Shown here: positions 7,427 through 64,000 of the stretch, piece by piece
How the letters are laid out: each line of letters opens with the position of its first letter
Position numbering within the stretch: the stretch's first letter is position 1
Assembly: GCA_963746695.1 (NCBI GenBank)
Contig: CAVVCP010000023.1
Coordinates: forward strand, 37,413 to 101,412
Length of the DNA: 64,000 nucleotides
From: an uncultured Solirubrobacterales bacterium
Lineage (GTDB): Bacteria > Actinomycetota > Thermoleophilia > Solirubrobacterales > Solirubrobacteraceae
Reading direction: 5' to 3'
Program-made: the position numbers and the translations under genes
Notes under the pieces: model-generated
What the model saw: only the letters and a program-made list of their open reading frames with translations
Told to the model about the DNA's origin: nothing
Databases searched by the model: none

Positions 7427-7429
7427 CTC

Positions 7430-8716: not shown

Positions 8717-8717
8717 G

Positions 8718-8737: not shown

Positions 8738-8746
8738 GGTTGTCGG

Positions 8747-9922: not shown

Positions 9923-9940
9923 TCGCGGATCATATCATTC

Positions 9941-9980
9941 TTACACAGTTTATGTGTAATTTTTACACAAATTGTGATAA
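9941..9980 (+). repeat. Right copy of paired TTACACA repeat, including perfect inverted repeat TTACACA-N5-TGTGTAA
   Basis: TTACACA at 9941-9947 and 9963-9969 (22-nt spacing). TGTGTAA at 9953-9959. AATTGTGATAA follows the second copy. Lies in the divergent promoter between the ATPase gene and the 79-aa gene. Confidence 0.6.
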
Positions 9981-9987
9981 TCCTTCG

Positions 9988-10227: not shown

Positions 10228-10245
10228 GCCTAAACTCAAAACTTC

Positions 10246-11421: not shown

Positions 11422-11431
11422 GCTGGAATAG

Positions 11432-11848: not shown

Positions 11849-11858
11849 GCGATAGCTG

Positions 11859-12461: not shown

Positions 12462-12473
12462 GATAGGGCAGCG

Positions 12474-13931: not shown

Positions 13932-13947
13932 ACCCGCCTCCTACTGC

Positions 13948-13987
13948 TTAGTGAGTGCTAACTAGACAGAAGATTAGCAGCGACTAA
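13948..13987. promoter_or_regulatory. Two TTAG-N6-CTAA imperfect palindromes upstream of the MFS-TetR operon (candidate TetR operators)
   Basis: TTAGTGAGTGCTAA at 13948-13961 and TTAGCAGCGACTAA at 13974-13987, 17-56 nt upstream of the MFS start in an AT-rich divergent intergenic region. Confidence 0.4.
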
Positions 13988-14023
13988 TAACTTGTCAAGA
14001 CCCGAACCGAATTCGGGCGCTTT

Positions 14024-47912: not shown

Positions 47913-48230
47913 GTGCCGCAAGTGATCGAAGTCTGCAACCTGGCCGAGCTCGGACCCGGCGAGATGCGCCTGGTTGAGTGGGAGGACCTCGAGATCGGCG
48001 TGTTCAACTGCGCCGGGACGGTCTACGCGATCGAGGATCGGTGCTCGCACGACAACGGCACGCTGGTCGAGGGAGAGCTCGACCAGGAGGCTTGCACGAT
48101 CGAATGTCCGCGACATGGGTCGCTGTTCGATCTGAAGACCGGGAAGCCGATGACTTTGCCCGCGTACGTTCCGGTGGACACGTACCCGGTGATCATCGAA
48201 GACGAGACGATCAAGCTGGAGGTGGAGTAA
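47913..48230 (+). CDS. Rieske [2Fe-2S] ferredoxin-like protein of the suf operon
   Basis: CSHD...(16)...CPRHGSLF, i.e. the Rieske CxH...CxxH pattern. Confidence 0.85.
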
Positions 48231-49657: not shown

Positions 49658-50810
49658 CGCCTCCGCTCCCGCCGTGGAGCTGCCCACGTTCAAGGGCCGC
49701 CCCGGGTGGGAGTTCACGGACATCTCGAGCCTGGACCTGGCCGCGTACGAGCGGGTGGGCGGTGCCGAGGCCGAGGCCGCGGGCGCGCAGCCGCTGTGGG
49801 TGTTGCCGGCCGCGGCCGAACTGCCCGACGGCGTGATCGTCTCGACGCTCGACGCGCCCGAACACCGGGAGCTGATCGAACGCCACCTGGGCTCGCTGGT
49901 GTCGCCCGATGACGACGCGTTCGTGGCGCTCAACGACGCCGGCGCCCGTGCGAGCGCGTTCGTGTACGTCCCGCGCGGCGTGGTGTTGACCGAGCCGATC
50001 TCACTGACCAGCGTGCAGGCCCGCACCGGAACCCTGCTCAACCAGCGCACGCTGGTAGTGCTCGACGAGGGCGCGGAGGCCGAGGTGTGGGAGCAGTTCC
50101 TGTCCGGGTCGGACGACCTCGACGGCGTGTTCAACACCGTCACCGAGCTCGTGGTTGGCCAGGCCGCGCGGCTTCGCTACGTGTGCGGCCAGGGACTGTC
50201 CGAGAAGAGTTGGATCTTCGGGGCCCAGCGGGCGGAGGTCGGACGCGATGCCTCACTGGACTGGGTCGCGCTCGGGTTCGGCTCGGCTCGCGGCCACGTG
50301 CGAATGGAGACGCGGCTCGCCGGCGAGGGATCCGAGGCCCGCGTGACCGGCGCGTACGCGACCCATGCCCGCCAGCACATCGACTTCGACACGACGCAGG
50401 AGCACGCTGCGGCGAACACCACATCGGATCTCGCGTTCCGCGGCGTTCTCCAGGACCGCTCGACCGCGGTCTGGAAGGGCAACATCATCGTCGATCCGGG
50501 CGCGCAGAAGACCGACGCGTTCCAGGAGTCGCGGAACCTGCTGCTGTCAAAGCGTGCTCACGCTGACGCCATCCCCGGGCTCGAGATCCAGGCCAACGAT
50601 GTGCGGTGCACGCACGCCGCAGCGGTGGCGCAGGTCGATCCCGAGCAGCTGTTCTACCTGCGCTCGCGCGGGCTGCCGCTCGAGGTGGCCAAGCGGCTGG
50701 TGATCGAAGGCTTCCTGGCGACGTTGGTCGAGCGGTTCGAGGCAGGCCCCGTGCGCGAGGTGCTGAGCGACGTGCTCGAGCGCCGGCTCGCGCTGATCCT
50801 CGGCGGCTAG
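49650..50810 (+). CDS. sufD: Fe-S cluster assembly protein SufD
   Basis: Follows and overlaps sufB. ...[22 protein letters not shown]...[30 protein letters not shown]. Confidence 0.9.
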
Positions 50811-50827
50811 ACGAGCTCCTCGGCGGC

Positions 50828-51697
50828 CTAGACGAGCTCGTCGAGGGCCTCGAGCTCGTCTTCCTCGAGCTCGAGCTGGGCGGCCTCGAGGTTCTCCTTG
50901 AAGTGCGAGATCGAGCTCGTACCCGGGATCGGCAGGATCACCGGCGAATGGGCGAGCAGCCACGCGACCGCGACCTGTCGGGCCGTGGCGCCGTGACGTC
51001 GGGCGCTCTCCTGCACCGCGGGGCCGTGGCGGGCGATGTCGTTCCCGCTCGCGATCGGCGCCCAGGGGAAGAACGCGAGCTGCTGTTGCGCGCACTCCTG
51101 CAGGACGTCCTCGGAGGCGCGATCGACGACGTTGTAGCGGTTCTGGACCGAGACAATCGGCACGATCTGCTGGGCTCGCTCGAGGTCATCGAGGCCGACG
51201 TTGGACACGCCGATATGGCGGATCTTCCCCTCCTCCTGAAGCTCGGCGAGCGCGCCGATCGAGTCCTCGATCGGCACCTTCGGGTCGACGGTGTGGAGCT
51301 GGTAGAGGTCGATCCGCTCGAGCCCCAGCCGCTTGAGCGAGGCCTCGCAGCAGCGTCGCAGCCGGTCCGGGCGGCAGTTTGCCACCCAGCGGTTGGGGCC
51401 TGGGCGTTCGAGCCCGCCCTTGGTGGCGATCACGAGGTCGTCGGGATAGGGGCGGAGCGCCTCGGCGATCAGCAGCTCGGAGACCTCGGGACCGTAGGAG
51501 TCGGCGGTGTCGATCAGGTTCACGCCGTCCTGGACGACCCGGCGGAGGAGGTCGCGGCAGCCCGCTGGATCCGCGGGCTCGCCCCAGATTCCGGCGCCGG
51601 TGATGCGCATCGCGCCGAAGCCGAGGCGGCCGACCTCGAGATCGCCGCCGAGGAGGAAGGTGTCGGTGTCAGTCATCGCGCGCGAGGTTACCGGCAT
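50828..51697 (-). CDS. Aldo/keto reductase
   Basis: LGFGAMRITG, IDTADSYG, YQLH, IPIPGTSS motifs. Confidence 0.9.
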   Translation of the reverse strand: MPVTSRAMTDTDTFLLGGDLEVGRLGFGAMRITGAGIWGEPADPAGCRDLLRRVVQDGVNLIDTADSYGPEVSELLIAEALRPYPDDLVIATKGGLERPGPNRWVANCRPDRLRRCCEASLKRLGLERIDLYQLHTVDPKVPIEDSIGALAELQEEGKIRHIGVSNVGLDDLERAQQIVPIVSVQNRYNVVDRASEDVLQECAQQQLAFFPWAPIASGNDIARHGPAVQESARRHGATARQVAVAWLLAHSPVILPIPGTSSISHFKENLEAAQLELEEDELEALDELV

Positions 51698-51726
51698 CCC
51701 GCAGGCGTACGATCCCGCCCACGATC

Positions 51727-51990
51727 ATGGCCAGGCGACCCCCAATGCTGATCCCGCTTGGATATGGCAAGTTCGTTCGCGCGGACCGAGTGTTCGCCCT
51801 GGTCCCGCTCGAGGGGCCAGACCGCGGCGACGGCCGGCGGACGTTTGTCTACGTGGACGGGATCGAGGAGCCGATCATCGCTTCGCGCTCGGAGGGGGCG
51901 ATCGCGCGCGATGTTGCCGCCGCGCTTGGACGAGGCGCGGGCCGGCTGCGGGACGGCCTGGAGCTGCCCGGCCAAGAGGCGCTTTTCTGA
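51727..51990 (+). CDS. RemA-like (DUF370) small regulator
   Basis: LIPLGYGKFVRADRVFALVPLE...RRTFVYVDGIEEPIIASRSEGAI parallels Bacillus RemA (INIGFGN.V.A.R..AIV.P......R......). Assignment from memory of the family. Confidence 0.6.
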   Translation: MARRPPMLIPLGYGKFVRADRVFALVPLEGPDRGDGRRTFVYVDGIEEPIIASRSEGAIARDVAAALGRGAGRLRDGLELPGQEALF

Positions 51991-52133
51991 TCTTGAGGGT
52001 TCTAAACCGCTTTGGACGAATGTTCTATTTGGCGTCCTCGCGGCCGCGCCGATACCTCAGCGAGTAGCGAGCAGCGAGTCCGAAACAGTCAGTGTCGCCT
52101 GGGGGCTGACGCCGACACAACGAGAGGTAGAGA

Positions 52134-52571
52134 ATGCGTGGAAATGTCTACCGTCATGGGAGGCGGCGGACAGGTTCGTTCCTGCTGGCCGTAGTCGCCG
52201 GGGCGGCCGTCGCGCTGGCGATCTTGCTGACATCGGTCTCGTCGGCGATGGCGAAGAGCCTCGCAGTCGCGCCCGTGCAATCCCCGGCACCCGTGGTCCA
52301 CAGCGCCCCGCCGCCGCCGGTCGCCGCCGTCCACGCGCCCACCCCGCCGCCGGTCGCGGCCGTTCATGCGCCCACGCCGCCGCCGGTTGCGGCTGTTCAC
52401 GCGCCCACGCCGCCGCCGGTCGTCGCGGTACACGCGCCCACGCCGCCGCCGGTTGCGGCGGTTCACGCGCCCACCCCGCCGCCGGTTGCGGTACACACGC
52501 CACCGCCGCCGGTCGTGGTTTTGAAGGTTCCGCCGCCGGTCGCGCACGCCGCGGGACACAAGATCGCTTGA
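52134..52571 (+). CDS. Membrane-anchored/secreted proline-rich protein with 11-aa tandem repeats (VHAPTPPPVAA)
   Basis: Shine-Dalgarno-like GAGAGG upstream. N-terminal hydrophobic FLLAVVAGAAVALAILL. About six repeat units. The stop lies 8 nt before the GGDEF-EAL start. Confidence 0.6.
   Translation: MRGNVYRHGRRRTGSFLLAVVAGAAVALAILLTSVSSAMAKSLAVAPVQSPAPVVHSAPPPPVAAVHAPTPPPVAAVHAPTPPPVAAVHAPTPPPVVAVHAPTPPPVAAVHAPTPPPVAVHTPPPPVVVLKVPPPVAHAAGHKIA
52296..52520 (+). repeat. 33-bp tandem repeat, about 6.5 copies, in frame inside the proline-rich gene
   Basis: Units begin at codons V55, V66, V77, V88, V99, V110 and V120 of ORF 52134. The DNA unit is like GTCCACGCGCCCACCCCGCCGCCGGTCGCGGCC with synonymous drift. 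Confidence 0.85.
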
Positions 52572-52579
52572 GCGCTCGG

Positions 52580-54592
52580 ATGGCAACGATCTCGCGCACG
52601 CCCCGGATCAGCGAGTTTGTTCTGTACGTAGCACTGGTCGCTCTGCTGGCGGCCACCGTTCTTATCGCCCTGCCCTGGGTCAGGGAATGGCAGATCGACC
52701 AGCCGGCGCTGTTCCTCATGCTGTCGGCGTTCGTGCTCGCGGGGGAACTGCTGCCGATCCCGGTCCCGCGCCGGCGAGGGCTGGCGCGGGTCACGATCTC
52801 GGCCGCGTTCGCGTTCGCGATCCTGCTGCGATTCGGTCCCGGCCCGGCCGCGCTTGTCTATGTCTCGAGCTCGGTGTTCGCGGACGTGGTCGGGCGCGTG
52901 GCCCCGCTCAAGATCCTCTTCAACGCCGCCCAGTACCTGCTCGCGATCGTCGCGGCCGCCGGCGTCCTGCTGCTCGCTCACTCGCTCCCGCTCGGGACGA
53001 TGACGGGCTCCGAGCTGCCGATCGTGCTCGCCGCGGCGACCGCGTTCTTCATCACCAACCACGTGCTCGCGTGCGTCGCGGGCGCACTGCTGGCGCGGCT
53101 TCCGATCCGCGCCTACCTGCGCGACGACCTGGCGTTCCAGGCCTGGACCGCCGGCTGCGTGCTGGCGTTCGCGCCCGCGCTGGTGGCGTCCGCCGACGCG
53201 AGCGTGGCGCTCGTACCGGTGTGCTTCATACCGATGCTCGCGGTGTACTTCGGCGGCCGGCAGGCCGCGCTCTCGAGCCACCGGGCACACCATGACGCGC
53301 TCACCGGTCTGCCCAACCGCTCGTCGATGTCGGAGACGCTCCATGAGGCGCTGAACGGCGCCGAGCGCGCCGGCCGGCCGCTGGCCGTGATGTTGCTCGA
53401 CCTCGACGACTTCAAGTCGATCAACGACACGCTCGGCCACGAGCTCGGCGACCTGACCCTTCAGCGGGTCGCGCGGCGGCTGCGTCAGGCGGTCGGTGAG
53501 TCGACGGTCCTCGCGCGGATCGGCGGCGATGAGTTCGCGGTGCTGATCGAGGGGCCGCAGGCCGAGGCCGAGGCGATCGCCGAGCGGCTGCTCGAGGCGC
53601 TCGACCACCCGCTCGAGGTTGACTCGGTCGCGCTTCACATCTGCGCCAGCATCGGGATCGCGTGCTTCCCGCAGCACGGCCGGACCGCGCCCGAGCTGAT
53701 CCGCCACGCGGACGTGGCCATGTACTGCGCCAAGGGGTCGGACGCCGCGTTCCAGACCTACGCCGAAGAGGACGACGAGTACAGCATCGACCGCCTGGCG
53801 CTTGCGGCTCAGCTCCGCCGAGGGATCGAGCGGGGCGAGCTGGTCGTCCACTACCAGCCGAAGGTGCCGCTCGACGGCGGCGCGACGCTTGCGCTCGAGG
53901 CGCTCGTGCGGTGGAACCATCCGCAGCTGGGCTGCATCGGCCCGGATGGGTTCATCCCGCTCGCCGAGCAGACCGGAATCATCAAGCCGCTCACCGAGAA
54001 GGTGCTGGAGGCCGCGCTCGAGCAGTGCAAGCGCTGGCGCCGCGATGGCCTAGAGGTGACGGTGTCGGTCAACGTCTCGACGCGCAGCCTGCTCGACCAC
54101 GATCTGCTGACGGTGATCGGGATGCTGCTGGCGCGGCTCGACCTAGATGCCTCGGCGCTCCAGCTCGAGATCACCGAGAGCCGGATCGTCGCGGACCTGC
54201 CGCGGGCGCGGGCCGCGCTCGAGGAGCTGCGGGCGATGGGCGTGATGATCGCGATCGACGACTTCGGGACGGGCTACTCGTCGCTGTCCCAACTCCAGCA
54301 GCTGCCGGTCGACGAGATCAAGATCGACCGCTCGTTCGTGACGCGGATGGAGACCGACCGCCAGGACGCGGTGCTCGTCCATTCGATCATCGATCTCGGC
54401 CGGAATCTGGGGCTGCGGGTGACCGCGGAGGGCGTCGAGACGCAGAACGTCAAGGACGTGCTCGCGGAGCTCGGCTGCGACTTCGCGCAGGGGTTCCACG
54501 TGGGGCGGCCGGCGGTCGCCAACGAATGTACGCGGTACCTCGGGCCGGGCCGTCCCGCCGCCGCGGTGATCCCGCTGGCGTCAGCGCGCTAG
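52580..54592 (+). CDS. Membrane-bound GGDEF/EAL protein (diguanylate cyclase/phosphodiesterase)
   Basis: ATG 52580. About 8 TM segments, then RIGGDEFAV (GGDEF), EALVRWNHP (EAL), DDFGTGYSS. The 51758..52579 part of the tracked ORF was discarded. Confidence 0.9.
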   Translation: MATISRTPRISEFVLYVALVALLAATVLIALPWVREWQIDQPALFLMLSAFVLAGELLPIPVPRRRGLARVTISAAFAFAILLRFGPGPAALVYVSSSVFADVVGRVAPLKILFNAAQYLLAIVAAAGVLLLAHSLPLGTMTGSELPIVLAAATAFFITNHVLACVAGALLARLPIRAYLRDDLAFQAWTAGCVLAFAPALVASADASVALVPVCFIPMLAVYFGGRQAALSSHRAHHDALTGLPNRSSMSETLHEALNGAERAGRPLAVMLLDLDDFKSINDTLGHELGDLTLQRVARRLRQAVGESTVLARIGGDEFAVLIEGPQAEAEAIAERLLEALDHPLEVDSVALHICASIGIACFPQHGRTAPELIRHADVAMYCAKGSDAAFQTYAEEDDEYSIDRLALAAQLRRGIERGELVVHYQPKVPLDGGATLALEALVRWNHPQLGCIGPDGFIPLAEQTGIIKPLTEKVLEAALEQCKRWRRDGLEVTVSVNVSTRSLLDHDLLTVIGMLLARLDLDASALQLEITESRIVADLPRARAALEELRAMGVMIAIDDFGTGYSSLSQLQQLPVDEIKIDRSFVTRMETDRQDAVLVHSIIDLGRNLGLRVTAEGVETQNVKDVLAELGCDFAQGFHVGRPAVANECTRYLGPGRPAAAVIPLASAR

Positions 54593-55245
54593 CCGGCGAC
54601 CTGCTGGTACAGCGAGGGCAGGCTCGGGTAGCCGCTCGAGGCCCAGCCTGAGTTCTGAAGCGCCGAGATCTGCGTCGCCGCCGGTTGGCCGGCGGTGTTG
54701 AGGATCGCCTGGATCCCTGAGCTGGCGGTGCCGTAGCCGGGGATCGTGTTCTGGCCCTTGAGCCAGCCCGCGGTGGCGTCGGCGGCGGTGGTCGGGTCGC
54801 TCCAGATCGAGTCGCTCGAGCCGTAGGTGGCGCTGTCGGTATAGCCGATGTTGAGCCAGTCGTTGTTGCCCTGGCTCTGCCGCGACTGGGCGGCGCCACC
54901 CGACTCCTCGGCCAGCAGCCAGGCCGAGACGACGCTCGGGTCCATCCCGGTGTCGGCGGCGAGGCGCGAGGCGAACTGCTGCTGGTTCGAGGTCAGCATG
55001 CTCTGGGCGCTCGACGGAAGCGCGCCGCCGGTGCCGGCGGTCGATCCCGTGTCCTGCGCCTGGGCCAGCGCGCTCGCGAAGGTCGACGACGAGCCCGTCC
55101 CCGTGGACGCGGTCCCGGTGGCGGTACCGGCCGCGCTCTGACTGGTCGCGGCCGCGACCGAGGGGTCAAACGCGGTCTGAAGTGAGGCGATCTGCGCTTG
55201 GATCTGCGAGACGCGGGTTACGGCATCGGTGTAGCTCATCGACAA
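54589..55245 (-). CDS. Hypothetical protein with low-complexity Ala/Thr/Gly/Ser-rich N-terminal half
   Basis: TTG 55245 or ATG 55239. C-terminal half ...VVSAWLLAEESGG...NNDWLNIGYTDS...GWLKGQNTIPGYG has unknown function. Confidence 0.5.
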   Translation of the reverse strand: MSMSYTDAVTRVSQIQAQIASLQTAFDPSVAAATSQSAAGTATGTASTGTGSSSTFASALAQAQDTGSTAGTGGALPSSAQSMLTSNQQQFASRLAADTGMDPSVVSAWLLAEESGGAAQSRQSQGNNDWLNIGYTDSATYGSSDSIWSDPTTAADATAGWLKGQNTIPGYGTASSGIQAILNTAGQPAATQISALQNSGWASSGYPSLPSLYQQVAG

Positions 55246-55303
55246 CCAAGTGATCGGCGGCTCGCGGATTCGCTTGAACGCGCGGACCCTGGCAGACGCG
55301 CGC

Positions 55304-55346
55304 GCTGACGCGCCCGCTGACGCGCCGGCGCCCGCTGACGCGCCGG
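55304..55346. repeat. GCTGACGCGCC direct repeats in the divergent promoter region
   Basis: GCTGACGCGCC at 55304, 55316 and 55334. Perfect 16-mer CCCGCTGACGCGCCGG at 55313-55328 and 55331-55346. Confidence 0.6.
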
Positions 55347-55401
55347 GGCAAGCTGAGCGTTTTCCGCGCTACAGGAATCCGCGACGGCGCCGATCACGTG
55401 T

Positions 55402-56289
55402 GTGATGGCGTTCCCTCGATCCGGCGCTCCGAAAGTCGTGCTGCTGTGCGGTGGTCTCGGCACCCGTATGCGCGAGGAGACCGAATACCGGCCCAAGCCG
55501 CTCGTCACCGTCGGCGGAAAGCCGCTGCTGTGGCACATCATGAAGCTCTTCTCCGCCCACGGGTGCACTGAGTTCATTTGCTGCCTGGGCTATCGCGGCG
55601 CGATGATCAAGGAGTACTTCCTCGACTACCGGGCGCTCAGCACCGACATGACCGTGTCGCTCGCCACGGGCACGGTGGAGTACGCCCGCCAGGAGGTCGA
55701 GGACTGGAAGGTCACGCTGGTCGACACGGGGGAGAGCACGATGACCGGCGCCCGGGTCAAGCGGGTCCAGCATCATCTCGAGGACGACGAGCTGTTCCTC
55801 TGCACGTACGGCGACGGCGTCGCCGACATCGACATCTCGGCGTTGATCGAGTTCCATCGCTCCCACGGTCGACTGGCCACGGTCACCGGCGTCCGGCCGC
55901 CGTCGGCATTCGGGGAGCTTGCGCTCGCCGGCAGCGAGGTGACGAGCTTTGTCGAGAAGCCTGCCGTGAGCGGGTCGCTGATCTCGGGAGGATTCTTCGT
56001 ATTCAACCGCGAGGTGCTCGACCGCCTGTCGGTCGACCCATCGTGCGTGCTCGAGCGCGAGCCGCTGGAGTGCCTGGCGCGGGACGGCGAGCTGCGCATG
56101 TACCACCACGACGGCTTCTGGCAGTGCGCCGACACGGTGCGTGACGTCGACTCCCTACGCGGAATGTGGGATCGCGGCCAGGCCCCGTGGCGGGTGTGGG
56201 ACGATCGGCGGGCGCAAGCGGAATCACACCCGGGCCGGCGAGCGAGCGATCGCGTCGACTCGCTTCTGTACGCCGCGGGACTGCGGTGA
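55402..56289 (+). CDS. rfbF: Glucose-1-phosphate cytidylyltransferase
   Basis: VVLLCGGLGTRMREETEYRPKPLVTVGGKPLLWHIMK...GARVKRV...YGDGVADIDI...EKP...ISGGFFVF...DGFWQCADT. Confidence 0.9.
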   Translation: MMAFPRSGAPKVVLLCGGLGTRMREETEYRPKPLVTVGGKPLLWHIMKLFSAHGCTEFICCLGYRGAMIKEYFLDYRALSTDMTVSLATGTVEYARQEVEDWKVTLVDTGESTMTGARVKRVQHHLEDDELFLCTYGDGVADIDISALIEFHRSHGRLATVTGVRPPSAFGELALAGSEVTSFVEKPAVSGSLISGGFFVFNREVLDRLSVDPSCVLEREPLECLARDGELRMYHHDGFWQCADTVRDVDSLRGMWDRGQAPWRVWDDRRAQAESHPGRRASDRVDSLLYAAGLR

Positions 56290-57248
56290 GCGGGTCCGCG
56301 GGCACCAGCGGGCGACTGCTCGTCACCGGCGCGTCCGGCTTTGTGGGGGCGGCGGTGGTGCGTCTGGCGCTGGAGCGCGGATACGCGGTGACCGCGTTGG
56401 TCGGGCCCCGGTCGGATCTGGCGCGGCTCGAGACGGTCAGGCGCGAGGTCGAGATTGCCCGGGTCGACATCACCGATGGCCAGGCTTTGGCCGGGGTCGT
56501 CGCGGTGGCCCGCCCCGTGGCCTGCGTGCATCTGGCCGCGAGCGGCGCCGTCGTACGCGAGGATGATCTCGCCACGCTGATCGCCGCGAACGCCACCGCT
56601 CCCGCGGTGCTGGCCGAGGCGCTGGCCGACGCCGGCGCCCGCAGGCTTGTGACCGCCGGCTCGAGCTCCGAGTACGGGACCCCGCCGGGGGCGATGGACG
56701 AGGCCTCAGCCGCTCGTCCGGACGACTTCTACGGCGTCGCCAAGCTGGCGGGCGGGCTGCTGGCCCGGATCGCCGGCGCCCGGCACGGACTCGAGACCGT
56801 GCACATGCGACTGTTCTCGGTCTACGGTCCGGGTGAGGACCCGCGCCGGCTGGTCCCGTCGCTGATCGATGCGCTGCTGACCGGACGGCCGCTCGCGCTC
56901 ACGCCGGGCGGGCAAGTGCGCGACTTCGTGTACGTCGACGACGTGGCCGACGCGCTGCTCGAGGCAGTGCGGCGCCCGGACCTGGGCGGCCACACGCTGA
57001 ATGTGGGCACAGGCGTGCAGACGAGCGTTCGCGAGCTGGGTGCGATCGTGGCCGGTCAACTCGGCGGCGAGCACCTGCTCCGCTTCGGGCAGCTGCCCTA
57101 TCGCCCCGACGAGCGTTTCAGCTGGCGAGCGTCCACCGAGCTGGCCGCGCGGATCCTGGGATGGCGCGCGCGCACCGCATTGCCGGAAGGCATCGCCCGC
57201 ACGATCGAAGCGGCCCGGGGCCGCGCGGGAGATCGGATCGCGGCATGA
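56286..57248 (+). CDS. NAD-dependent sugar epimerase/reductase (SDR)
   Basis: GTGA overlap start. LLVTGASGFVGAAVV, YGVAKLAG (YxxxK). Confidence 0.85.
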   Translation: MSGSAGTSGRLLVTGASGFVGAAVVRLALERGYAVTALVGPRSDLARLETVRREVEIARVDITDGQALAGVVAVARPVACVHLAASGAVVREDDLATLIAANATAPAVLAEALADAGARRLVTAGSSSEYGTPPGAMDEASAARPDDFYGVAKLAGGLLARIAGARHGLETVHMRLFSVYGPGEDPRRLVPSLIDALLTGRPLALTPGGQVRDFVYVDDVADALLEAVRRPDLGGHTLNVGTGVQTSVRELGAIVAGQLGGEHLLRFGQLPYRPDERFSWRASTELAARILGWRARTALPEGIARTIEAARGRAGDRIAA

Positions 57249-58057
57249 GCAGCGAGACCACCGCCCACGAGGTGCGACGGCTGACGGTCGAGCTCGCGCT
57301 GGAAGCCGGCACCTGCCACATCGGCTCGGCGCTCGGAATCGCCGACGTCCTGACCGTCCTCTTCTTCGAGCTGATGCCGGTCGATCCGTCCATCCCGTCG
57401 TCGCCGCTGAAGGACACGTTCATCCTGAGCAAGGCCCACGCGGGCTCGGCGCTGCTGTCCGTGTTGGCGGTGCGCGGCACGATCGATCGCGACGAGTTGC
57501 GGCGCGAGTACTGCCGCGACGGCGGGGCGTACGGCGGTCACGCCGAGCGCGGCACGCCGGGCGTGGAGATCTCGGGCGGGTCGCTCGGGCACGGGCTGCC
57601 GATCGCGATCGGGCGAGCGATTGCCGATCGTCTCGACGGCCGGCTGCGCCGGACCTACTGCCTGATGGGCGACGGCGAGACCGACGAGGGCTCGGTGTCG
57701 GAGGCCGCCGCGCTGGCCGGGCGACTGGGGCTTGGACAGCTCGTGGCGATCATCGACGCCAACGGCCACCAGGGCCTCGACCGCGAGCTGACGTCCGGTC
57801 ACTGGGAGCGCCTCGCCGGGCGCTTTGAGTCCGCCGGCTGGGACGTCGCCAACGTGGACGGGCACGACCACGATGCCCTGCGGCGCGCGCTCGGCGTGGC
57901 CGCCGGTAGTCGGCCGCGCTGTGTTCTCGCCCACACCATCAAGGGCAAGGGCATCCCGTTCATGGAGGGCCGCTTCGACTCCCACTACAAGTCGTTCAAG
58001 CCGGAGCAGCGGGACATGGTGCTGACCGCGCTCGCCCAGGGGAGGGCCGCGGCATGA
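57245..58057 (+). CDS. Transketolase N-terminal (ThDP/PP-binding) subunit
   Basis: HIGSALGIADVLTVLFF, SKAHAG, GSLGHGLPIAIG, GDGETDEGSVSEA. Confidence 0.9.
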   Translation: MSSETTAHEVRRLTVELALEAGTCHIGSALGIADVLTVLFFELMPVDPSIPSSPLKDTFILSKAHAGSALLSVLAVRGTIDRDELRREYCRDGGAYGGHAERGTPGVEISGGSLGHGLPIAIGRAIADRLDGRLRRTYCLMGDGETDEGSVSEAAALAGRLGLGQLVAIIDANGHQGLDRELTSGHWERLAGRFESAGWDVANVDGHDHDALRRALGVAAGSRPRCVLAHTIKGKGIPFMEGRFDSHYKSFKPEQRDMVLTALAQGRAAA

Positions 58058-58983
58058 GGGACGCTTTCGCCGCTGCGCTGACGCATGGTGCGGCCGAGAA
58101 TGAGCGCGTCTGCCTTGTGCTGGCTGACCTCGGCGTCGGCGTGTTCGACGAGTTCGAGCGCACGGCGCCCGGCCGGATCCTCAACGTCGGGATCGCCGAG
58201 CAGACGATGGTCGGGGTGGCTGCCGGTCTTGCCCAGGCCGGCAAGCGCGCGGTCGCGTACACGATCGCGCCGTTCATCACCTCTCGCGCGCACGACCAGG
58301 TTCGCGTCGACGTCGCCGCCGGCAACGCCAACGTCCTGCTGGTCGGCGTGGGCGGTGGCGTCGCCTACGGATACCTCGGGCTGACCCATCACGCGATCGA
58401 CGATCTGGCCGCGATGCGGGCGCTGCCGAACATGACCGTGCTGAGTCCCTGCGATCCCCAGGACACCACCGGTGCCGTGCACGCGGCGCTCGCCCTGGAC
58501 GGACCGGCCTACCTTCGACTCGGCAAGAACGGCGAGCCGGGGTTGCTGCCCGACGGGGCGGAATTCACGCTCGGGCGTGCAACGCGCGTACGCGCTGGTA
58601 AGGACGTCACGATCGCCTCCACGGGCACGATCCTGGGTAGCGCGATCGGCGCCGCCGAGCTTCTCGCCCGCGACGGAATCGACGCTGCCGTACTCCATTT
58701 CGGGACGGTCAAGCCACTCGACGAGGACGCGGTGCTGAGCGCTCTCGCCGACACCGGGCTGATCCTTGCGCTTGAGGAGCACTCGGTGCTCGGCGGCTTC
58801 GGGAGCGCGGTCGCCGAGGTCGCGGCAGCGTCCGGAGCCGGGCGGGTGCTGCGTATCGGCTTCCCCGACTGCTTCGTGCACGAGGTGGGTGGGCGCGAGT
58901 ACCTGCTGGCGCACTACGGCCTGGACGCTGCCGGCGTCGCCGCCCGGGTACGGGTCGCGCTCGGGGAGAAGGTGGCGGGATGA
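58054..58983 (+). CDS. Transketolase C-terminal (pyrimidine-binding) subunit
   Basis: NVGIAEQTMVGVAAGLA, GLTHHAIDDLAAMRALPNMTV, TVKPLDE. Confidence 0.9.
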   Translation: MRDAFAAALTHGAAENERVCLVLADLGVGVFDEFERTAPGRILNVGIAEQTMVGVAAGLAQAGKRAVAYTIAPFITSRAHDQVRVDVAAGNANVLLVGVGGGVAYGYLGLTHHAIDDLAAMRALPNMTVLSPCDPQDTTGAVHAALALDGPAYLRLGKNGEPGLLPDGAEFTLGRATRVRAGKDVTIASTGTILGSAIGAAELLARDGIDAAVLHFGTVKPLDEDAVLSALADTGLILALEEHSVLGGFGSAVAEVAAASGAGRVLRIGFPDCFVHEVGGREYLLAHYGLDAAGVAARVRVALGEKVAG

Positions 58984-60215
58984 GTTGGGCAGTTCATCCG
59001 CGCGGCGGCTGCCGGGTGTGCGGTTCGCCCAACGTGCCCGAGTTCCTCGACCTGGGCGCGGCACCTTTCACCGACGACTTTGTCACCCCCGAGAGCCGCG
59101 GCGAGGAGTTCGTCGCCCCGTTGAAGGTGGCGATCTGCCGCGAGTGCTGGACGGCCCAGACCCAGCACGATGTGGAGGTCGACGAGTACTACCGCGATTA
59201 CAACTACAGCGTGGCGGCATCCCCCTTCGCCCAGCGGTTCATGGCCAGACTGGCGCAGGAGACGCTCGGTCGATACGCCTCCGGACCCGAAGCGCGCGTG
59301 CTCGAGGTGGGCTCCGGCGATGGCGCCCAACTCGAGCAGTTCCAGGCGCTGGGGGCGCGGGTGCTCGGCTTCGAGCCCTCCGCCGAGCTGTGCGCCACCT
59401 CGCGGGCGGCCGGCGTCCCCGTGGCGGAGTGCCTGTTCGAAGCCGGCACGGTCGGGGCGATTCCCGCCGACATGCGTCCGGCTGACGTGGTCCTGCTCAC
59501 CTACACGTTCGATCACCTCCCCGATCCACTGTCGTTCCTGGAGGCGGTCGGCACGGTGCTCGACCCCTCGCATGGCGTGCTGGTGATCGAGGTGCACGAC
59601 CTTGAGGAGATCATGCGCCGGCGCGAGACGTGCCTGTTCGAGCACGAGCACTCCGTCTACCTGAGCCGGCAGTCGTTCCGCCGGCTTCTGGAGCGGGCGG
59701 GCTTCGTGCTGCTCAGCACCGAGCTCCTGCCCGCGCGCGAGCGCCGCGGCAACTCACTCCTGGTCGTCGCCGCGCCACGCGCCACCCGGCACGTGCCCGA
59801 CGCGGGCGCGCCCGATATCCCCGAGCTGGAGCGGTGGGAGACCTATGCCGGCTTTGGCGACGCCGTCGCGGCCAGCCACAGCGCTCTGCGCGAGTACGTG
59901 CGCGCGCGCCGCGCCGAGGGCGTGCGCGTGGCCGGCTACGGTGCCGGCGGGCGCGGGGTGATGACGCTCGCCGTGTCCGGCCTGCACTCCGGCGACGTCG
60001 CATACCTGTGCGATCGCAGCCCGCACGCGCACGGACTGTTTGCCCCGAAGTCGCACGTGCCCATCTGCCCCCCCAGCCGGCTGGCCGAGGACCCGGTCGA
60101 TGAGCTGATCGTGTTCTCTTACGGCTACATGGACGAGATCCGCGAGCAGCTCGAGCGCGAGCTGCCGGTCGTGCCCCGGCTCACCTCGGTCCTCGACCTG
60201 CTCGCAGTCAGATAG
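58980..60215 (+). CDS. NDP-hexose C-methyltransferase-like protein (Zn-ribbon + SAM MTase + C-terminal domain), copy 1
   Basis: CRVCGS...CRECWTAQ zinc ribbon, LEVGSGDGAQL SAM motif, C-terminal GYGAGGRG Rossmann-like domain, as in TylC3-type enzymes. Confidence 0.75.
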   Translation: MSWAVHPRGGCRVCGSPNVPEFLDLGAAPFTDDFVTPESRGEEFVAPLKVAICRECWTAQTQHDVEVDEYYRDYNYSVAASPFAQRFMARLAQETLGRYASGPEARVLEVGSGDGAQLEQFQALGARVLGFEPSAELCATSRAAGVPVAECLFEAGTVGAIPADMRPADVVLLTYTFDHLPDPLSFLEAVGTVLDPSHGVLVIEVHDLEEIMRRRETCLFEHEHSVYLSRQSFRRLLERAGFVLLSTELLPARERRGNSLLVVAAPRATRHVPDAGAPDIPELERWETYAGFGDAVAASHSALREYVRARRAEGVRVAGYGAGGRGVMTLAVSGLHSGDVAYLCDRSPHAHGLFAPKSHVPICPPSRLAEDPVDELIVFSYGYMDEIREQLERELPVVPRLTSVLDLLAVR

Positions 60216-61386
60216 AGCGCGGCGGCGGCAGCAGCTCGAGCGGCGTGCCGAGCACGGCGATCGTCCCGCGGAAGCCCAGCGGGCCGCGGAGCTCGGCGAT
60301 GATCTCGTCGCGGTAGGCGAGCGCGGTCAGGACCACGAGGTCGACGGGCTGCTCGCGCAACCGCTCGGGCGCCACCACCGGTAGGTGGGTGATCGGCGTC
60401 AGCCGTCCCTGCTTGTGGGGGTCCGAGTCGATCACGTAGGCGAAGCCCTCGGCTCCGGCGGCGGCGAGGCTGGCCAGGCCCTTGGCCCCCGATCCCCAGG
60501 CGGCCACGCGGCGCCCCGCCGCGACGTGGGAGCGCACGAGCGCGCGCAGCTCGTCCGCCACGTCGGTGACCGACTGCTGCAGCCCGGCGAAGTCCCGCCC
60601 GGAGTCGACCCGGACCAGAGCCTGCAGGAACTCTCCACCCATGCCGCGGGTCACCTCGAGCACCAGGAAGCCGTTGGTCTCGAGCGCCCGGGCCAGCGTC
60701 CCGGCGCTGAAGTAGTTGACGTGATCGCGGAAGAAGTCGTAGAAGCGATGGTGCTCGAGCGCCTGCTCGAGGCTGGGAACCTCGACCAGCCCGACGCCGT
60801 CGTCGGTGAGTGACCGGCGGATGCCCTGGAGGAAGTCGTTCGGGTCCGGGATGTGCTCGAGCACCTCGCGGGTGGCGAAGGCGTCGTAGGGGCCGCCGGG
60901 GATCGGATCAGCGGCGGTCACATAGCCGCCCAGCACGTCGTGGCCGGCGGCCAACGCCAGCTCGCGGAACGGCGCGGAGGGCTCGAGGCCGGTGGCGTCG
61001 ACCCCGAGCTCGCGCAGCACCCCGAGGTAGTGACCGTCACCGCACCCGACCTCGATAACGCGCCGTCCCGGCAGCTCGAACCGCTCGACGAAGCCGCGGG
61101 CCTGCTCGCGCTGGAACTCGCGCATCTGCGGCGAGTGGCTGACCGTCATCACGTACTCGTCGTAGTAGCTGCTGTCCGGGTCGACAAGAAGCTGGACGTG
61201 GCCGCAGCGCTCACAGCGGTAGACCTCCAGGCTGATCGGCTCGTCGTGCGCGGCCTCGGACGGGGTGAGGAGGTAGGAGATGTTGCGGGGCGCGCGGTCG
61301 AGGCGGAGGCTTGGCAAGAGCTCGGTGGAGTGGCACAGCCGGCACGCGGCGCCGGCAATCGCCTCGGCTGGTGGACGCCCGGTCAC
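60208..61386 (-). CDS. NDP-hexose C-methyltransferase-like protein, copy 2 (diverged paralogue, convergent with copy 1)
   Basis: GTG 61386 overlaps the stop of the upstream gene (GTGA). CRLCHS...CERCGHVQ, IEVGCGDGHYL, AWGSGAKG. The tracked ORF upstream extension to 61575 was discarded. Confidence 0.75.
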   Translation of the reverse strand: MTGRPPAEAIAGAACRLCHSTELLPSLRLDRAPRNISYLLTPSEAAHDEPISLEVYRCERCGHVQLLVDPDSSYYDEYVMTVSHSPQMREFQREQARGFVERFELPGRRVIEVGCGDGHYLGVLRELGVDATGLEPSAPFRELALAAGHDVLGGYVTAADPIPGGPYDAFATREVLEHIPDPNDFLQGIRRSLTDDGVGLVEVPSLEQALEHHRFYDFFRDHVNYFSAGTLARALETNGFLVLEVTRGMGGEFLQALVRVDSGRDFAGLQQSVTDVADELRALVRSHVAAGRRVAAWGSGAKGLASLAAAGAEGFAYVIDSDPHKQGRLTPITHLPVVAPERLREQPVDLVVLTALAYRDEIIAELRGPLGFRGTIAVLGTPLELLPPPRSI

Positions 61387-62381
61387 GCCCGGTCGTAGAC
61401 GTAGCGGCGGTACCAGTCGATCGTTCGGCGTAGCCCTTCCTCCAAGCTCACCCGGGGGGCCCAGCCGGACATCGTGCGCAGCTTGGTCGAGTCGACCCAT
61501 TGCCGGCTGATCTCGCCCGCGGGGGTGCCGGTGCCGCGGACGTCGGGCTCGACGCCCGTCTCGGCGACCTGGCACATCAGCGCCACCACCTCGAGCACCG
61601 AATGAGGCTGATCGCCGCCGGCGTTGAATGCCTCGCCGCCGCCCCGGCGCTCCTCGAGCAGTTGGGCGATCGCCAGGTAGGCGTCGACCGCGTCCTCGAC
61701 GTACAAGAAGTCGCGCTGCAGCGTGCCGTCGGAGCGGATCACCGGCCGCCGTCCCTCGATCGCCGCCATCGCCGCCTCGGGCACGAGACGGGACAGGTTC
61801 AAGTCGCCGCCGCCGTACAGGTTGGCGAAGCGGGTGACGGCTACCGGCAGCTCGAACGTGTGCCAGTAGCTGCGGGCGATCATGTCGGTGGCCGCCTTGG
61901 AGACGTCATAGGGGTAGCGCGGCGTGAGCGCGAAGTCCTCTCGGTAGGGCAGCTGGTCGTGGATCCCGTACGCCTTGTCCGACGCGGCCACGACGACGCG
62001 CGCGACTCGGAGATGCCGGCAGGCCTCGAGCAGCGTCCAGGTCCCGCGGATGTTCGTCTCGAACGTCGACAGCGGCGCGGTGTTGGCGATTCCCACGATC
62101 GTCTGGGCGGCCAGGTGGAAGACCGTGTCCACCTCGTACTCGCCGAGCGCGCGCTCGATCAGCGGGCCGTCGCAGATGTCGCCGTGGACGACGTTGACGT
62201 GACGCTCGGTGCCCTCGAGCTCGAGTGCCGAGCCGGGCACCGAGTCGCGCTTGAGCACGGTGGTCCGGGCGCCCTCCGCGATCAGCCGCTTGACCATCCA
62301 GCTGCCGAGGAGGCCGTACGCCCCGGTGACGAACACCGAGCGGCCGCGCAGCGTGCCGGGGCTGGACGGAGGGTGCGCCAT
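61383..62381 (-). CDS. CDP-glucose 4,6-dehydratase-like NAD-dependent dehydratase
   Basis: VFVTGAYGLLGSWMVKRL, HLAAQTIV, TNIRGTWTLLEA, YDVSKAA (YxxxK). Confidence 0.8.
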   Translation of the reverse strand: MAHPPSSPGTLRGRSVFVTGAYGLLGSWMVKRLIAEGARTTVLKRDSVPGSALELEGTERHVNVVHGDICDGPLIERALGEYEVDTVFHLAAQTIVGIANTAPLSTFETNIRGTWTLLEACRHLRVARVVVAASDKAYGIHDQLPYREDFALTPRYPYDVSKAATDMIARSYWHTFELPVAVTRFANLYGGGDLNLSRLVPEAAMAAIEGRRPVIRSDGTLQRDFLYVEDAVDAYLAIAQLLEERRGGGEAFNAGGDQPHSVLEVVALMCQVAETGVEPDVRGTGTPAGEISRQWVDSTKLRTMSGWAPRVSLEEGLRRTIDWYRRYVYDRA

Positions 62382-62392
62382 CGACGCGAAGA

Positions 62393-63691
62393 TTACGGCC
62401 CGGTCAGCCGGCCAGCGTCAGCAGCTGCCTCGCCTCGGCATCCTCGGGATCGCGCTCGATCACACTGGCGGCGTCGGCATGGGCGCCAACACGATCGCCG
62501 CCGGCGAGGCGGATGGCGCCCCGGTTGAGCAGCGCATCCCGGTCGTGCGGGGCGACGAACAGCGCGTGCTCGACGTAGGCGCGCGGCATCCGCGAGACCG
62601 AGGTGGTGCGCGGTGACCGCGAGGTCGTTCCAGGCGGCGGACAAGCCGGGCAGGCGTGCCGCGGCCTCGGCAAACCGCTGCGCTGCGGCCTGTGCGTCCC
62701 CGCCCGCGAACGCCTCCTCGCCCGCGGCCACCAGCTCGCGGGCGATTCGATCGTCGCCCACGGCGCGAGCCGCGTCGTCGAGCACCACGAGGAGATCACG
62801 GCGGCCCTGGGCGCGGGCCAGCCTCCACAGATAGTCGCGCAGGCCCTGAGACTGGGGGAAGCGGGCGACGGCCTCGGCGAGCCGCTCGATGGGCAGGCGT
62901 TCCCAGAGGTCGAAGGCCCAGCCGTTCACGTAGAACCCGTCCAGGGTCGCTCCGAACTCGGCCTCCGACAGGCCGGCGTGTAGACCGTCGTCGTAGAGAG
63001 CGGTGAAGTCGAGCGTCATGATCGTATGCCGGCGGTCGGCCCAGGTGATCTCGGTGCCCCCGTCGAGCAGGGGCTCGGCGGCCGCGACGCACGGGCCATC
63101 CAGGCCGGCGCGGAAGAACCACAGGAGCGGGATGTAGGCGTTGTCGGTGTGGACCTCGCGGATCGACTGCTGCAAGCCGCGGGTGCGAACGATCGAGGCC
63201 GACATGAACGTCAACCAGTGATGGTGGGCGCGGTACATGTCGGCGGCGTCGGCGTAGCGCTCGACGTGGCCTCGCGCGGGCGACGTTCCGACCACCCGCC
63301 CGGAGGGGTCGACCCACCGGTGGGGCAGGTGAAGCCACGCCGGCCGCTCCGCGCGGAGCAGACCCACGACCGTGGCCAGGGCGCCGTCGTGGGGGATGTC
63401 GTCGTCGCCGATCAGCCACAGGTACTCGCTGTCGCCGGCATGATCGATGAGCCATTGGATGTTGGGCGGTGCACCGAGGTTGGTTGGCTGGCGGTGAACA
63501 CGCAGCCAGGGCAGGCGCTCCGCCGCTTCTCGCAGCAGCTCGGGCGTTCGATCCGCGGAGGCGTTGTCGGACACGAACACGGTGACGTCCTCGCCGGCGT
63601 GGCTCAGCTGCCGCTCGAGGCAGGCGAGCAGGCGCTCGAGGTCGTCCGCGCGCTCGAACGTCGGTATGCCGATGCACAGCAGCGAGCTCAC
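62393..63691 (-). CDS. Family 2 glycosyltransferase with C-terminal TPR-like region (the TPR reading frame appears shifted near 62578-62590)
   Basis: GTG 63691 overlaps the stop of the upstream gene. IGIPTFERADDLERLL...VSDNASAD...IGDDD (GT2). TPR-like text continues in a second frame (ORF 62404..62799 tail). Confidence 0.75.
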   Translation of the reverse strand: MSSLLCIGIPTFERADDLERLLACLERQLSHAGEDVTVFVSDNASADRTPELLREAAERLPWLRVHRQPTNLGAPPNIQWLIDHAGDSEYLWLIGDDDIPHDGALATVVGLLRAERPAWLHLPHRWVDPSGRVVGTSPARGHVERYADAADMYRAHHHWLTFMSASIVRTRGLQQSIREVHTDNAYIPLLWFFRAGLDGPCVAAAEPLLDGGTEITWADRRHTIMTLDFTALYDDGLHAGLSEAEFGATLDGFYVNGWAFDLWERLPIERLAEAVARFPQSQGLRDYLWRLARAQGRRDLLVVLDDAARAVGDDRIARELVAAGEEAFAGGDAQAAAQRFAEAAARLPGLSAAWNDLAVTAHHLGLADAARLRRARAVRRPARPGCAAQPGRHPPRRRRSCWRPCRRRQCDRARSRGCRGEAAADAGRLTGP

Positions 63692-64000
63692 GCCGCCTCG
63701 CTCCGGGCCCGGCGCTCGTAGAACCGGGCGCGGACGGCCTCGGTGGCGGCCAGCGCGTCCGCGGGCGGCGCCAGGGCGTCTACCTGTGCGCCGCGCAGGA
63801 TGTCCGCGTAGCGCGGACCCATCACGTCCCACGTGTAGGAAGCCTGCCAGTGGGCGAGCCCGGCGGCGCCCAGCTCGCGGGCCGCGGCCGGGGCGTCGAG
63901 CAGGAAGTCGATGCCGTCGCCGAACATCCGCAGCGGGAGGATCAGGCCGCCGGCGTGGTCGTGCACGGCGCCACAGGTGGGGGTGGCGATCCACGGAAGG
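63688..64000 (-). CDS. Family 1 (GT4-like) glycosyltransferase, C-terminal part (5' end outside window)
   Basis: The frame is open to the window edge. ...GLILPLRMFGDGIDFLLDAPAAARELGAAG resembles a GT1 C-terminus. Weak because the fragment is short. Confidence 0.5.
   Translation of the reverse strand, partial: LPWIATPTCGAVHDHAGGLILPLRMFGDGIDFLLDAPAAARELGAAGLAHWQASYTWDVMGPRYADILRGAQVDALAPPADALAATEAVRARFYERRARSEAA

Follow-up and report, generated by a model that had tools for sequence, protein, structure and literature searches.

The 64,000-nucleotide stretch analysed here (hereafter the window) ends in a gene cluster, at 55405-64000, which most likely encodes a self-contained nucleotide-sugar pathway, together with glycosyltransferases, for an unusual branched 6-deoxyhexose. 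Within it lie the two genes of a split transketolase (TK), TK-N and TK-C. With a probability of roughly 0.5, this enzyme would add a two-carbon (C2) hydroxyacetyl branch to C4 of a C-methylated cytidine diphosphate (CDP)-4-keto-6-deoxyhexose, and an extended short-chain dehydrogenase/reductase (SDR), here called SDR1, would reduce the ketone of the branch. We put this model forward because, in related loci, the TK genes are invariably found with rfbF and a dehydratase gene, because one type of locus has a yersiniose-like gene set, because an SDR or an aminotransferase gene always stands beside the TK, and because the acceptor pocket of the TK is altered.

In the proposed route, RfbF would provide CDP-D-glucose and a dehydratase with an SDK motif would convert it to CDP-4-keto-6-deoxy-D-glucose. 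Two methyltransferases, MT1 and MT2, would then C-methylate next to the carbonyl, most simply at C3 and C5. The split TK would carry a C2 unit bound to thiamine diphosphate (ThDP) to the C4 ketone, which would thereby become a tertiary alcohol bearing a hydroxyacetyl branch. This unit would most likely be dihydroxyethyl (glycolaldehyde), taken from a ketose phosphate or from hydroxypyruvate. SDR1 is proposed to reduce the branch ketone, the part that YerF plays in the making of yersiniose; its alternative role would be that of a 4-ketoreductase. The expected product would be CDP-6-deoxy-(di)-C-methyl-4-C-(1,2-dihydroxyethyl)hexose, with methylation and branching in either order. Its transfer would fall to a family 2 glycosyltransferase (GT2) with a tetratricopeptide repeat (TPR)-like region, GT2-TPR, acting with GT1 and GT2 enzymes encoded beyond the window. 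A natural 4-C-glycolyl sugar exists in pillarose.

Gene content and layout of the cluster

Gene calls come from a mechanical listing of open reading frames combined with Pfam and NCBIfam searches of the window proteins, and the nine genes of the original prediction were all recovered at their positions. Five genes on the plus strand converge on four on the minus strand. The plus-strand series starts with rfbF (glucose-1-phosphate cytidylyltransferase, 55405-56289; TIGR02623, Pfam NTP_transferase), followed by SDR1 (56286-57248; Pfam Epimerase, 4.8e-47), TK-N (57245-58057; the N-terminal, ThDP diphosphate-binding subunit, Transketolase_N, 8.8e-36), TK-C (58054-58983; the C-terminal, pyrimidine-binding subunit, Transket_pyr and Transketolase_C) and MT1 (58980-60215; a nucleoside diphosphate (NDP)-hexose C-methyltransferase of the TylC3/TcaB9 type). 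Successive genes share exact start/stop overlaps of 4 nt (GTGA, ATGA, ATGA and ATGA), which bears out the translational coupling claimed for them. The start of rfbF, initially placed at 55402, is more likely the ATG at 55405, following the gene call in a 99%-identical related contig (L001); the gene itself stands.

On the minus strand are MT2 (60208-61386, with the start as called in L001), an SDR resembling CDP-glucose 4,6-dehydratases (61383-62381), GT2-TPR (62393-63691) and the C-terminal end of a GT1/GT4-type glycosyltransferase gene (63688-64000) that leaves the window. Here GTGA overlaps occur twice, one of them between the end of GT1 and the start of GT2. The end of the partial GT1 gene is present as described, and its assignment to GT1 depends on a full-length orthologue in L001 (528 aa, Glycos_transf_1). 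The stop codons of MT1 and MT2 overlap tail to tail at 60208-60215, as had been noted. The arrangement is not a matter of chance, since more than 12 independent contigs have the same genes in synteny, 60-99% identical.

Formation and methylation of the CDP-sugar

RfbF scores 347.8 bits against TIGR02623 over model positions 2-255 of 255, above the equivalog cut-off of 300.25, and this family membership supports CDP-D-glucose as its predicted product. In the dehydratase, the segments aSDKaYg and GGGDlnlsRlVPe align with tSDKcYd and GGGDwaldRiVPd of the Yersinia CDP-glucose 4,6-dehydratase (1rkx). Enzymes of the thymidine diphosphate (dTDP) type show sTDEvYG where the window protein has SDK, so that the motif is of the CDP type, and family membership supports CDP-4-keto-6-deoxy-D-glucose as the putative product. 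The entry point from CDP-glucose to CDP-4-keto-6-deoxyglucose is thus well supported, by the TIGR02623 score and by the dehydratase motifs. SDR1 has the GxxGxxG and YxxxK motifs.

MT1 and MT2 both consist of a Methyltransf_13 Zn ribbon (PF08421), a class I S-adenosylmethionine (SAM) domain (PF13489 in MT1) and Methyltransf_14 (PF08484), and are only 30% identical; the common architecture and strong divergence ascribed to them are therefore confirmed. Both match the structure of the NDP-sugar 3-C-methyltransferase TcaB9 (PDB 4rv9; 4.9e-48 for MT1, 3.3e-35 for MT2), which together with the Pfam domains places them securely in the TylC3/TcaB9 family. Membership of this family supports C-methylation of the carbons beside the carbonyl, predicted most simply to be C3 and C5. 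Orthologues in an acidobacterial locus (L092) are 57% (MT1) and 58% (MT2) identical to the window copies. As these values exceed the 30% between MT1 and MT2, they point to two separate conserved functions.

The acceptor pocket of the transketolase

The best PDB matches of the pair are the chains of a split TK (6yak, N chain, 4.6e-46 for TK-N; 6yaj, 1.1e-58 for TK-C). TK-C also matches DXS (TIGR00204, 158.9 bits; PDB 8a8y, 1.2e-33). In the Pfam and NCBIfam searches the two subunits matched only transketolase, DXS and E1 families, and no match was found to the TPP_enzyme families that define the YerE-type fold.

Residues were mapped to E. coli numbering through alignment with the Carboxydothermus split TK and human TK, and the roles of the active-site positions are those established by structural work on transketolases. 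TK-N keeps the equivalents of H26, H66, H100, D155, N185 and H261 (H25, H65, H99, D143, N173 and H247), and TK-C those of R358, E411 (E49) and H473 (H112). The ThDP/Mg motif GDG...N, the activating Glu and the catalytic His residues of canonical TKs are accordingly all present. At the acceptor and phosphate positions of TK-C, S385 is replaced by Gly29, H461 by Gly100, D469 by Leu108 and R520 by Lys158, so that of R358, S385, H461, D469 and R520 only R358 is kept. Judged from these residues, the window enzyme appears not to be a canonical transketolase.

We surveyed positions S385, H461, D469 and R520 across 88 split TKs. Canonical enzymes from archaea and Firmicutes have S/T, H, D and R; a large group of Rhizobium-type split TKs, in catabolic loci, has S, S, L and R; the TKs of sugar clusters have G, G, L/Q and K. 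Where Gly occupies the H461 position, NDP-sugar genes lie within 10 kb in 17 of 22 loci, versus 2 of 66 with other residues; when the Solirubrobacterales clade and the loci found through MT1 are removed the values become 5 of 10 versus 2 of 66, and shared ancestry inflates these figures. In a rough neighbour-joining tree, too, the TKs linked to sugar genes fall outside the canonical and catabolic groups.

Most of the split TKs retrieved from genomes belong to the catabolic type, with no link to NDP-sugar genes. In these Rhizobium-type loci (L011-L086, for example L011 at 3619-13433), a ribose-type ABC transporter, an SDR, an FGGY kinase and a DeoR regulator are encoded nearby. With Ser and Leu at the H461 and D469 positions, their TKs may correspond to ketone-releasing enzymes such as apulose-4-phosphate transketolase. 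Outside Actinomycetota, too, split TK genes stand beside genes for DegT-type aminotransferases and/or homologues of the NDP-sugar dehydratase and GT2 in L042 (9195-12439), L056 (9193-12032), L069 (3662-20434) and L038 (109-10867), a group that includes Anaerolineae (L042), Burkholderia (L056), Saccharibacillus (L069) and SAR86. This suggests that TKs take part in sugar tailoring more widely than the published Streptomyces cases show.

Related loci share a core and differ in tailoring genes

A TK-C relative of 99% identity (P0001) served as query for homologues, no exact match to the window TK-C having been found. The 120 best clusters of TK-C homologues, formed at 90% identity, all have at least 60% identity and come from soil metagenomes; there are thus at least 120 such clusters. 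Gene contexts were read in 13 related contigs, which were scanned with the window proteins. Their invariant core consists of rfbF, the dehydratase gene, TK-N, TK-C and GT2-TPR, whereas the tailoring genes vary.

Four types can be distinguished. Type A (the window, L001-L005 and L087) has SDR1, MT1 and MT2; in L087, eight genes form an isolated module. Type B (L006, L007, L009 and L088) has a GNAT-DegT aminotransferase fusion coupled to TK-C, with RfbH in L007, L009 and L088; RfbH was not found in L006. Type C (L008 and L010) has a different SDR, one methyltransferase and RfbH. In Type D (L089) the order is RfbH / rfbF-TKN-TKC-SDR1-GT2TPR / dehydratase, and RfbH is unambiguously identified (NF011936, 675 bits versus a cut-off of 423). 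By the assignment of its genes, Type D is the yersiniose set (DdhA, DdhB, DdhC, a ThDP enzyme and a reductase), with a predicted TK in the place that YerE would occupy. SDR1 lies beside or is coupled to the TK in the window, L004, L087 and L089; in L089 its orthologue, 67% identical, directly follows TK-C. The neighbour of the TK is always an SDR or an aminotransferase, which correspond to the two documented fates of branch ketones: reduction in paulomycin, trioxacarcin and avilamycin, and transamination in kibdelomycin (PMC12247030).

A search with MT1 led to loci in other lineages (L090, L091 and L092). In L092, from a member of the Pyrinomonadaceae (Acidobacteriota), orthologues of all seven window enzymes form one operon beside wzm/wzt, in the order wzm-wzt-rfbF-dehydratase-MT1(57%)-SDR(34%)-TylF-MT2(58%)-TKN-TKC-GT2. 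Since all its orthologues are present there, the Type A enzyme set is conserved across phyla. L090 and L091 resemble L092, with one methyltransferase.

Frameshifts break the dehydratase and GT2-TPR genes of the 99%-identical contig L001 into fragments (13330-15649); both genes are intact in the window. We suspect assembly errors and not pseudogenes; the frameshifted calls were not used as evidence on the window genes. The position of the island is also conserved. In the window (~48000-55245), L001 and L089 it follows genes for SufB/D, an aldo-keto reductase, a GGDEF-EAL protein and a 218-aa protein; in L010 the 218-aa gene alone was confirmed in the flank. A conserved position with variable gene content resembles a hypervariable glycan locus.

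Sigma-28-type promoters and the transferases

The consensus for FliA/WhiG is T(A/C)AA-N16-GCCGATAA (PMC12871210). We looked for T(A/C)AA, a spacer of about 15-16 nt and GCCGA(TAA) within 200 bp upstream of start codons. The 160-bp divergent region at 55245-55405, between the 218-aa gene and rfbF, holds two motifs of this type. One, TACA-N15-GCCGATCA (55370-55396, plus strand), faces the rfbF-SDR-TK-MT1 operon, has one mismatch in its -35 element and ends 8 nt before the ATG at 55405. The other, TCAA-N15-GCCGATCA (55251-55277, minus strand), faces the 218-aa gene and ends 11 nt before the ATG at 55239. Only three independent sites match the relaxed motif in the whole window.

The next divergent region, at about 65.3 kb in window-equivalent coordinates, could be read in L001. 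It contains a further pair (17240-17266, minus strand; 17272-17298, plus strand), one motif facing the GT1-GT2TPR-dehydratase-MT2 operon and the other a GT2 gene. In the window and L001 together, T(A/C)(A/C)A-N15-GCCGATCA ends 7-11 nt before four operon starts, a distance from the start codons that implies leaderless transcripts. An equivalent motif stands before RfbH in L010 and L089, before the dehydratase gene in L007, and before the operon that bears the TK genes in L004, L010, L087, L088 and L089. Each of the two flagellin genes of L008, and that of L089, likewise has a motif of this type about 70 nt upstream. To judge from these motifs, the cluster is probably co-regulated with the flagellum, under sigma-28-type promoters.

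The flagellin genes adjoin the island in both loci (L008, two copies, 2869-4634; L089, 19016-19882). GT2-TPR, which has a clear Glycos_transf_2 domain (1.4e-14), is a candidate transferase of the unusual sugar, possibly onto protein. Its designation holds for the GT2 domain, whereas the TPR part, sub-threshold in the window protein (TPR_19, E = 0.062), is clear in orthologues such as one of 60% identity in L008. FlmG of Caulobacter, a fusion of TPR and glycosyltransferase, is a known flagellin modifier whose TPR domain binds flagellin (PMC7591256). Sigma-28-type motifs before the operons, flagellins beside the island in two relatives and the FlmG precedent together suggest, by analogy, that the sugar may decorate flagellin or another protein of the sigma-28 regulon.

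The divergent region has two further features. The 218-aa protein (54589-55245, minus strand, likely start at ATG 55239) is conserved, and no Pfam or NCBIfam match to it was found. It has a Ser/Thr/Gly-rich central stretch, and its orthologues in L001, L010 and L089 are 72-99% identical and occupy the same place. It may be related to the flagellum or be itself a target of glycosylation. The second feature is CGCTGACGCGCC, of which three direct copies are packed into 42 bp (55303-55344); the rest of the window has none, and in L001 the first of the three has diverged.

Weighing of alternative readings

Several observations weigh against the branching model or against flagellin as the acceptor. 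The dehydratase, which the original prediction called CDP-glucose 4,6-dehydratase-like, earns that name by its SDK and GGGD motifs but misses both curated cut-offs (166.6 versus 278.45 bits for the CDP-type model TIGR02622, 183.5 versus 365.1 bits for the dTDP type). The closest solved relatives of SDR1 are 4-epimerase-like SDRs and not known branch reductases. The donor substrate of the TK is not readable from its sequence. Branching of sugars by TKs has been proposed, and no case has been characterised biochemically (PMC12247030). In each locus variant, moreover, the enzymes other than TK also make up a complete conventional pathway, to a 3-C-methyl-6-deoxyhexose, a 3,6-dideoxyhexose or a 4-acetamido-3,4,6-trideoxyhexose depending on the variant, so that the TK could have another role. 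As to the acceptor, the TPR part of the window GT2 is below threshold, no flagellin or other flagellar gene was found in the 64-kb window and no flagellin homologue within 10 kb in L001, and flagellin genes lie within 10 kb in only 2 of about 13 related loci. Wzy_C and LytR_C genes are near the island in L004, and in L092 the pathway adjoins a Wzm/Wzt ABC exporter.

If the TK acted on something else, for example another small carbonyl compound or in a precursor supply step, the product would be an ordinary CDP-6-deoxy-3-C-methylhexose resembling vinelose or virenose, and SDR1 would serve as the C4 ketoreductase. Vinelose is itself a CDP-linked 3-C-methyl-6-deoxyhexose. The genes rfbF, dehydratase, C-methyltransferase and SDR do amount to a full textbook pathway and are contiguous in L090 and L092, the non-TK genes of other relatives likewise make up conventional pathways that are complete, and SDR1 resembles C4-acting SDRs. 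Yet four tailoring variants and two phyla all keep the TK with rfbF and the dehydratase gene, its genes are translationally coupled within the operon, its acceptor pocket is unlike that of canonical TKs, and no other substrate-supplying gene co-varies with it; we therefore consider an ordinary sugar unlikely. The earlier proposal of two-carbon branching by the TK is in turn strengthened by the pairing with RfbH and SDR1, by the aminotransferase swaps and by the altered pocket, and is tempered by this same conventional pathway that needs no TK. Branching with a different donor is a quite improbable variant. In this case the enzyme would use pyruvate or another 2-oxo acid, in the manner of DXS or E1, to add an acetyl group that would become a yersiniose-like 1-hydroxyethyl branch. 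TK-C does match DXS strongly, and 2-oxo acids are the donors of all characterised sugar-branching ThDP enzymes (PMC12247030); the best relatives of the pair, however, are split transketolases and not DXS or E1, and all TK His residues that hold the C1 hydroxyl of the donor are kept, though DXS shares several of them. That the TK genes are housekeeping or catabolic genes (pentose phosphates, sugar catabolism), in the cluster by chance, would fit the many genomic split TKs found with ABC transporter, FGGY kinase and DeoR regulator genes. Those catabolic enzymes, however, are at most 48% identical to the window TK, form a separate clade and have a different pocket signature, while TK genes of the window type stay linked to rfbF at identities of 60-99%, with start/stop overlaps of 4 nt, and the L087 module stands isolated with its eight genes. 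This explanation is accordingly very improbable.

The acceptor is a separate matter. The same pathway could instead serve a cell-envelope polysaccharide, with a lipid-linked polymer as acceptor, a reading that we regard as possible but less likely than not. The exporter linked to the pathway in L092, the polymer-related genes of L004 and the lack of detectable flagellar genes in the window all speak for it, as does L001, where the island runs on for at least 5 kb and includes several more GT1 and GT2 genes. Against it stand the sigma-28-type promoters before all island operons, of the same type as those before flagellins, the flagellin genes that abut the island in L008 and L089, and the resemblance of the GT2-TPR architecture to protein-directed transferases such as FlmG. 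The fullest form of our proposal has the TK as a ketone-accepting carboligase, one of a cross-phylum family (Thermoleophilia, Acidobacteriota, Chloroflexota and others) acting in surface-glycan pathways; here, a hitherto undescribed di-C-methyl, C2-branched 6-deoxyhexose would be put on flagellin by GT2-TPR under sigma-28 control. As a joint statement this is tentative, and we would not expect every part of it to hold.

Other chemistries were examined and set aside. Glycolyl transfer through an acyl carrier protein (ACP) has a precedent in the QncN/QncL-type route; TK-C has only Transket_pyr and Transketolase_C, and the cluster encodes no ACP or lipoyl partner. Use of the CDP-keto sugar as TK donor would cleave C3-C4 and destroy the glycosyl donor. 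Extension at C6 was rejected, as C6 is a methyl group after 4,6-dehydration. A 3,6-dideoxy pathway in the window was likewise rejected: the cluster contains no RfbH homologue, the sole match being a distant, partial DegT gene at 3-461.

Remainder of the window

The window has a G+C content of about 70%, and the closest relatives of its proteins are in metagenome-assembled genomes of Solirubrobacteraceae, Baekduia and Conexibacter, pointing to a Solirubrobacterales-like organism. From 1 to 55 kb it carries unrelated housekeeping genes, among them those for a phosphoesterase, an IMS-family/DnaE2-like pair, an MFS transporter, an AT3-SGNH acyltransferase, a glutamine synthetase, Suf proteins, an aldo-keto reductase and a GGDEF-EAL protein. 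The fused AT3-SGNH acyltransferase (14024-16261, plus strand) is typical of glycan O-acetyltransferases and lies 40 kb from the island, with no evident link to it. The partial DegT-family aminotransferase-like gene (3-461, plus strand) is 29-37% identical to the RfbH/DegT queries, and there may be a second sugar locus upstream of the window. The ImuB-like IMS protein (7385-8620, plus strand) and the DnaE2-like DNA polymerase III alpha paralogue (18364-21708, plus strand) are suggestive of a damage-inducible mutagenesis cassette unrelated to the sugar island.

Comparison with known systems

Acyl branching of NDP-keto sugars by ThDP enzymes is established for YerE-like lyases and E1-type enzymes, and split TKs have been proposed for hydroxyacetyl branching in miharamycin and amipurimycin biosynthesis (PMC12247030, a 2025 review). 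The same review summarises 13 split TKs in a sugar context, all in Streptomycetes (Krug et al. 2024, as given there), and attributes the unproven state of TK branching partly to natural keto-sugar substrates of Streptomyces that are unobtainable (PMC12247030). In a full-text literature search, no relevant paper was found that joins transketolase with rfbF/rfbG, with cytidylyltransferase/C-methyltransferase, with CDP-glucose/branched sugar, with an O-antigen cluster or with apulose; transketolases are not mentioned in Steitz et al. 2022. The gene combination, which the original prediction did not recognise from a characterised pathway, is unfamiliar only in part, hydroxyacetyl branching of keto sugars by split TKs having already been proposed, though not proven (PMC12247030).

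If the model is correct, TKs would be a third class of ThDP enzymes in sugar branching and a biocatalyst for hydroxy-functionalised tertiary alcohols, as well as a pointer to new sugars, and the flagella or surface proteins of abundant soil Thermoleophilia may carry such sugars. The locus and its relatives make a simpler system in which to test such branching, because well-known enzymes give access to the predicted acceptor, whether CDP-4-keto-6-deoxyglucose or its 3-deoxy form. The TK is small and widespread, with natural variants that come with a reductase, an aminotransferase or C-methyltransferases. An open enzymological question thus becomes directly testable, and undescribed sugars on abundant soil bacteria are indicated.

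The nearest pathway is that of yersiniose A in Yersinia pseudotuberculosis (DdhA-D, YerE and YerF). Both enter through CDP-glucose and a CDP-type 4,6-dehydratase; in both, as proposed here for the window, a CDP-6-deoxy-4-ketohexose would receive C2 at its C4 ketone from a ThDP enzyme, and the branch would be completed by an NAD(P)H reductase. The relatives L089, L008, L010 and L088 also have RfbH/DdhC. The substrate of YerE is CDP-3,6-dideoxy-4-keto-D-glucose (PMC12247030). The window has two C-methyltransferases instead of RfbH. Its ThDP enzyme is a two-subunit transketolase whose donor is probably a hydroxymethyl ketone and not pyruvate, whereas YerE belongs to the decarboxylase/acetohydroxyacid synthase superfamily. 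The E1-type enzymes AlmDI/DII, KbDH-alpha/beta and AviB1/B2 are likewise two-subunit ThDP enzymes that place a C2 branch on an NDP-keto sugar, and the later reduction or transamination of the branch ketone mirrors the alternation of SDR and DegT among the relatives of the window; they differ in family (E1), in their pyruvate donor, in the use of dTDP-sugars and in serving antibiotic pathways.

The split TK of Carboxydothermus hydrogenoformans (6yak/6yaj) is the closest structure and has the ThDP/Mg motif, the activating Glu and the donor His residues in common with the window pair, but carries Ser, His and Asp where TK-C has Gly29, Gly100 and Leu108. DesAB, the steroid-17,20-desmolase of Clostridium scindens, is a split TK pair proposed to cleave hydroxyacetyl from the tertiary C17 of cortisol, leaving a ketone. 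This is the reverse of the reaction proposed for the window, on a steroid and in a catabolic context. Among the tailoring enzymes, the TylC3, TcaB9 and mycarose 3-C-methyltransferases have the same three-domain architecture and strong matches to MT1 and MT2; they act on dTDP-2,6-dideoxy or amino sugars, whereas the window has CDP-sugars and two paralogues conserved together. FlmG resembles the predicted GT2-TPR architecture in fusing a TPR module to a glycosyltransferase, and its expression is tied to the flagellar programme (PMC7591256). It combines an N-terminal TPR with a GT-B domain and transfers pseudaminic acid, whereas the window protein has an N-terminal GT2 (GT-A) domain and a C-terminal TPR-like region.

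The miharamycin and amipurimycin split TKs, compared here as the review describes them, share with the window a split TK in a sugar-tailoring cluster beside a keto-sugar-forming enzyme and a proposed C2 transfer to a ketone. Separate TK-N and TK-C genes in a keto-sugar cluster are conserved in more than 12 of the loci studied here. The Streptomycete enzymes belong to secondary-metabolite clusters and concern nucleoside high-carbon sugars; the window has instead a CDP-hexose pathway, for a proposed surface glycoconjugate, with two C-methyltransferases, a spread across phyla and apparent sigma-28 control. By its fold the window enzyme does not belong to the YerE family, and by its pocket it does not appear to be a canonical TK; in architecture and context, the locus fits the proposed class of branching split TKs.

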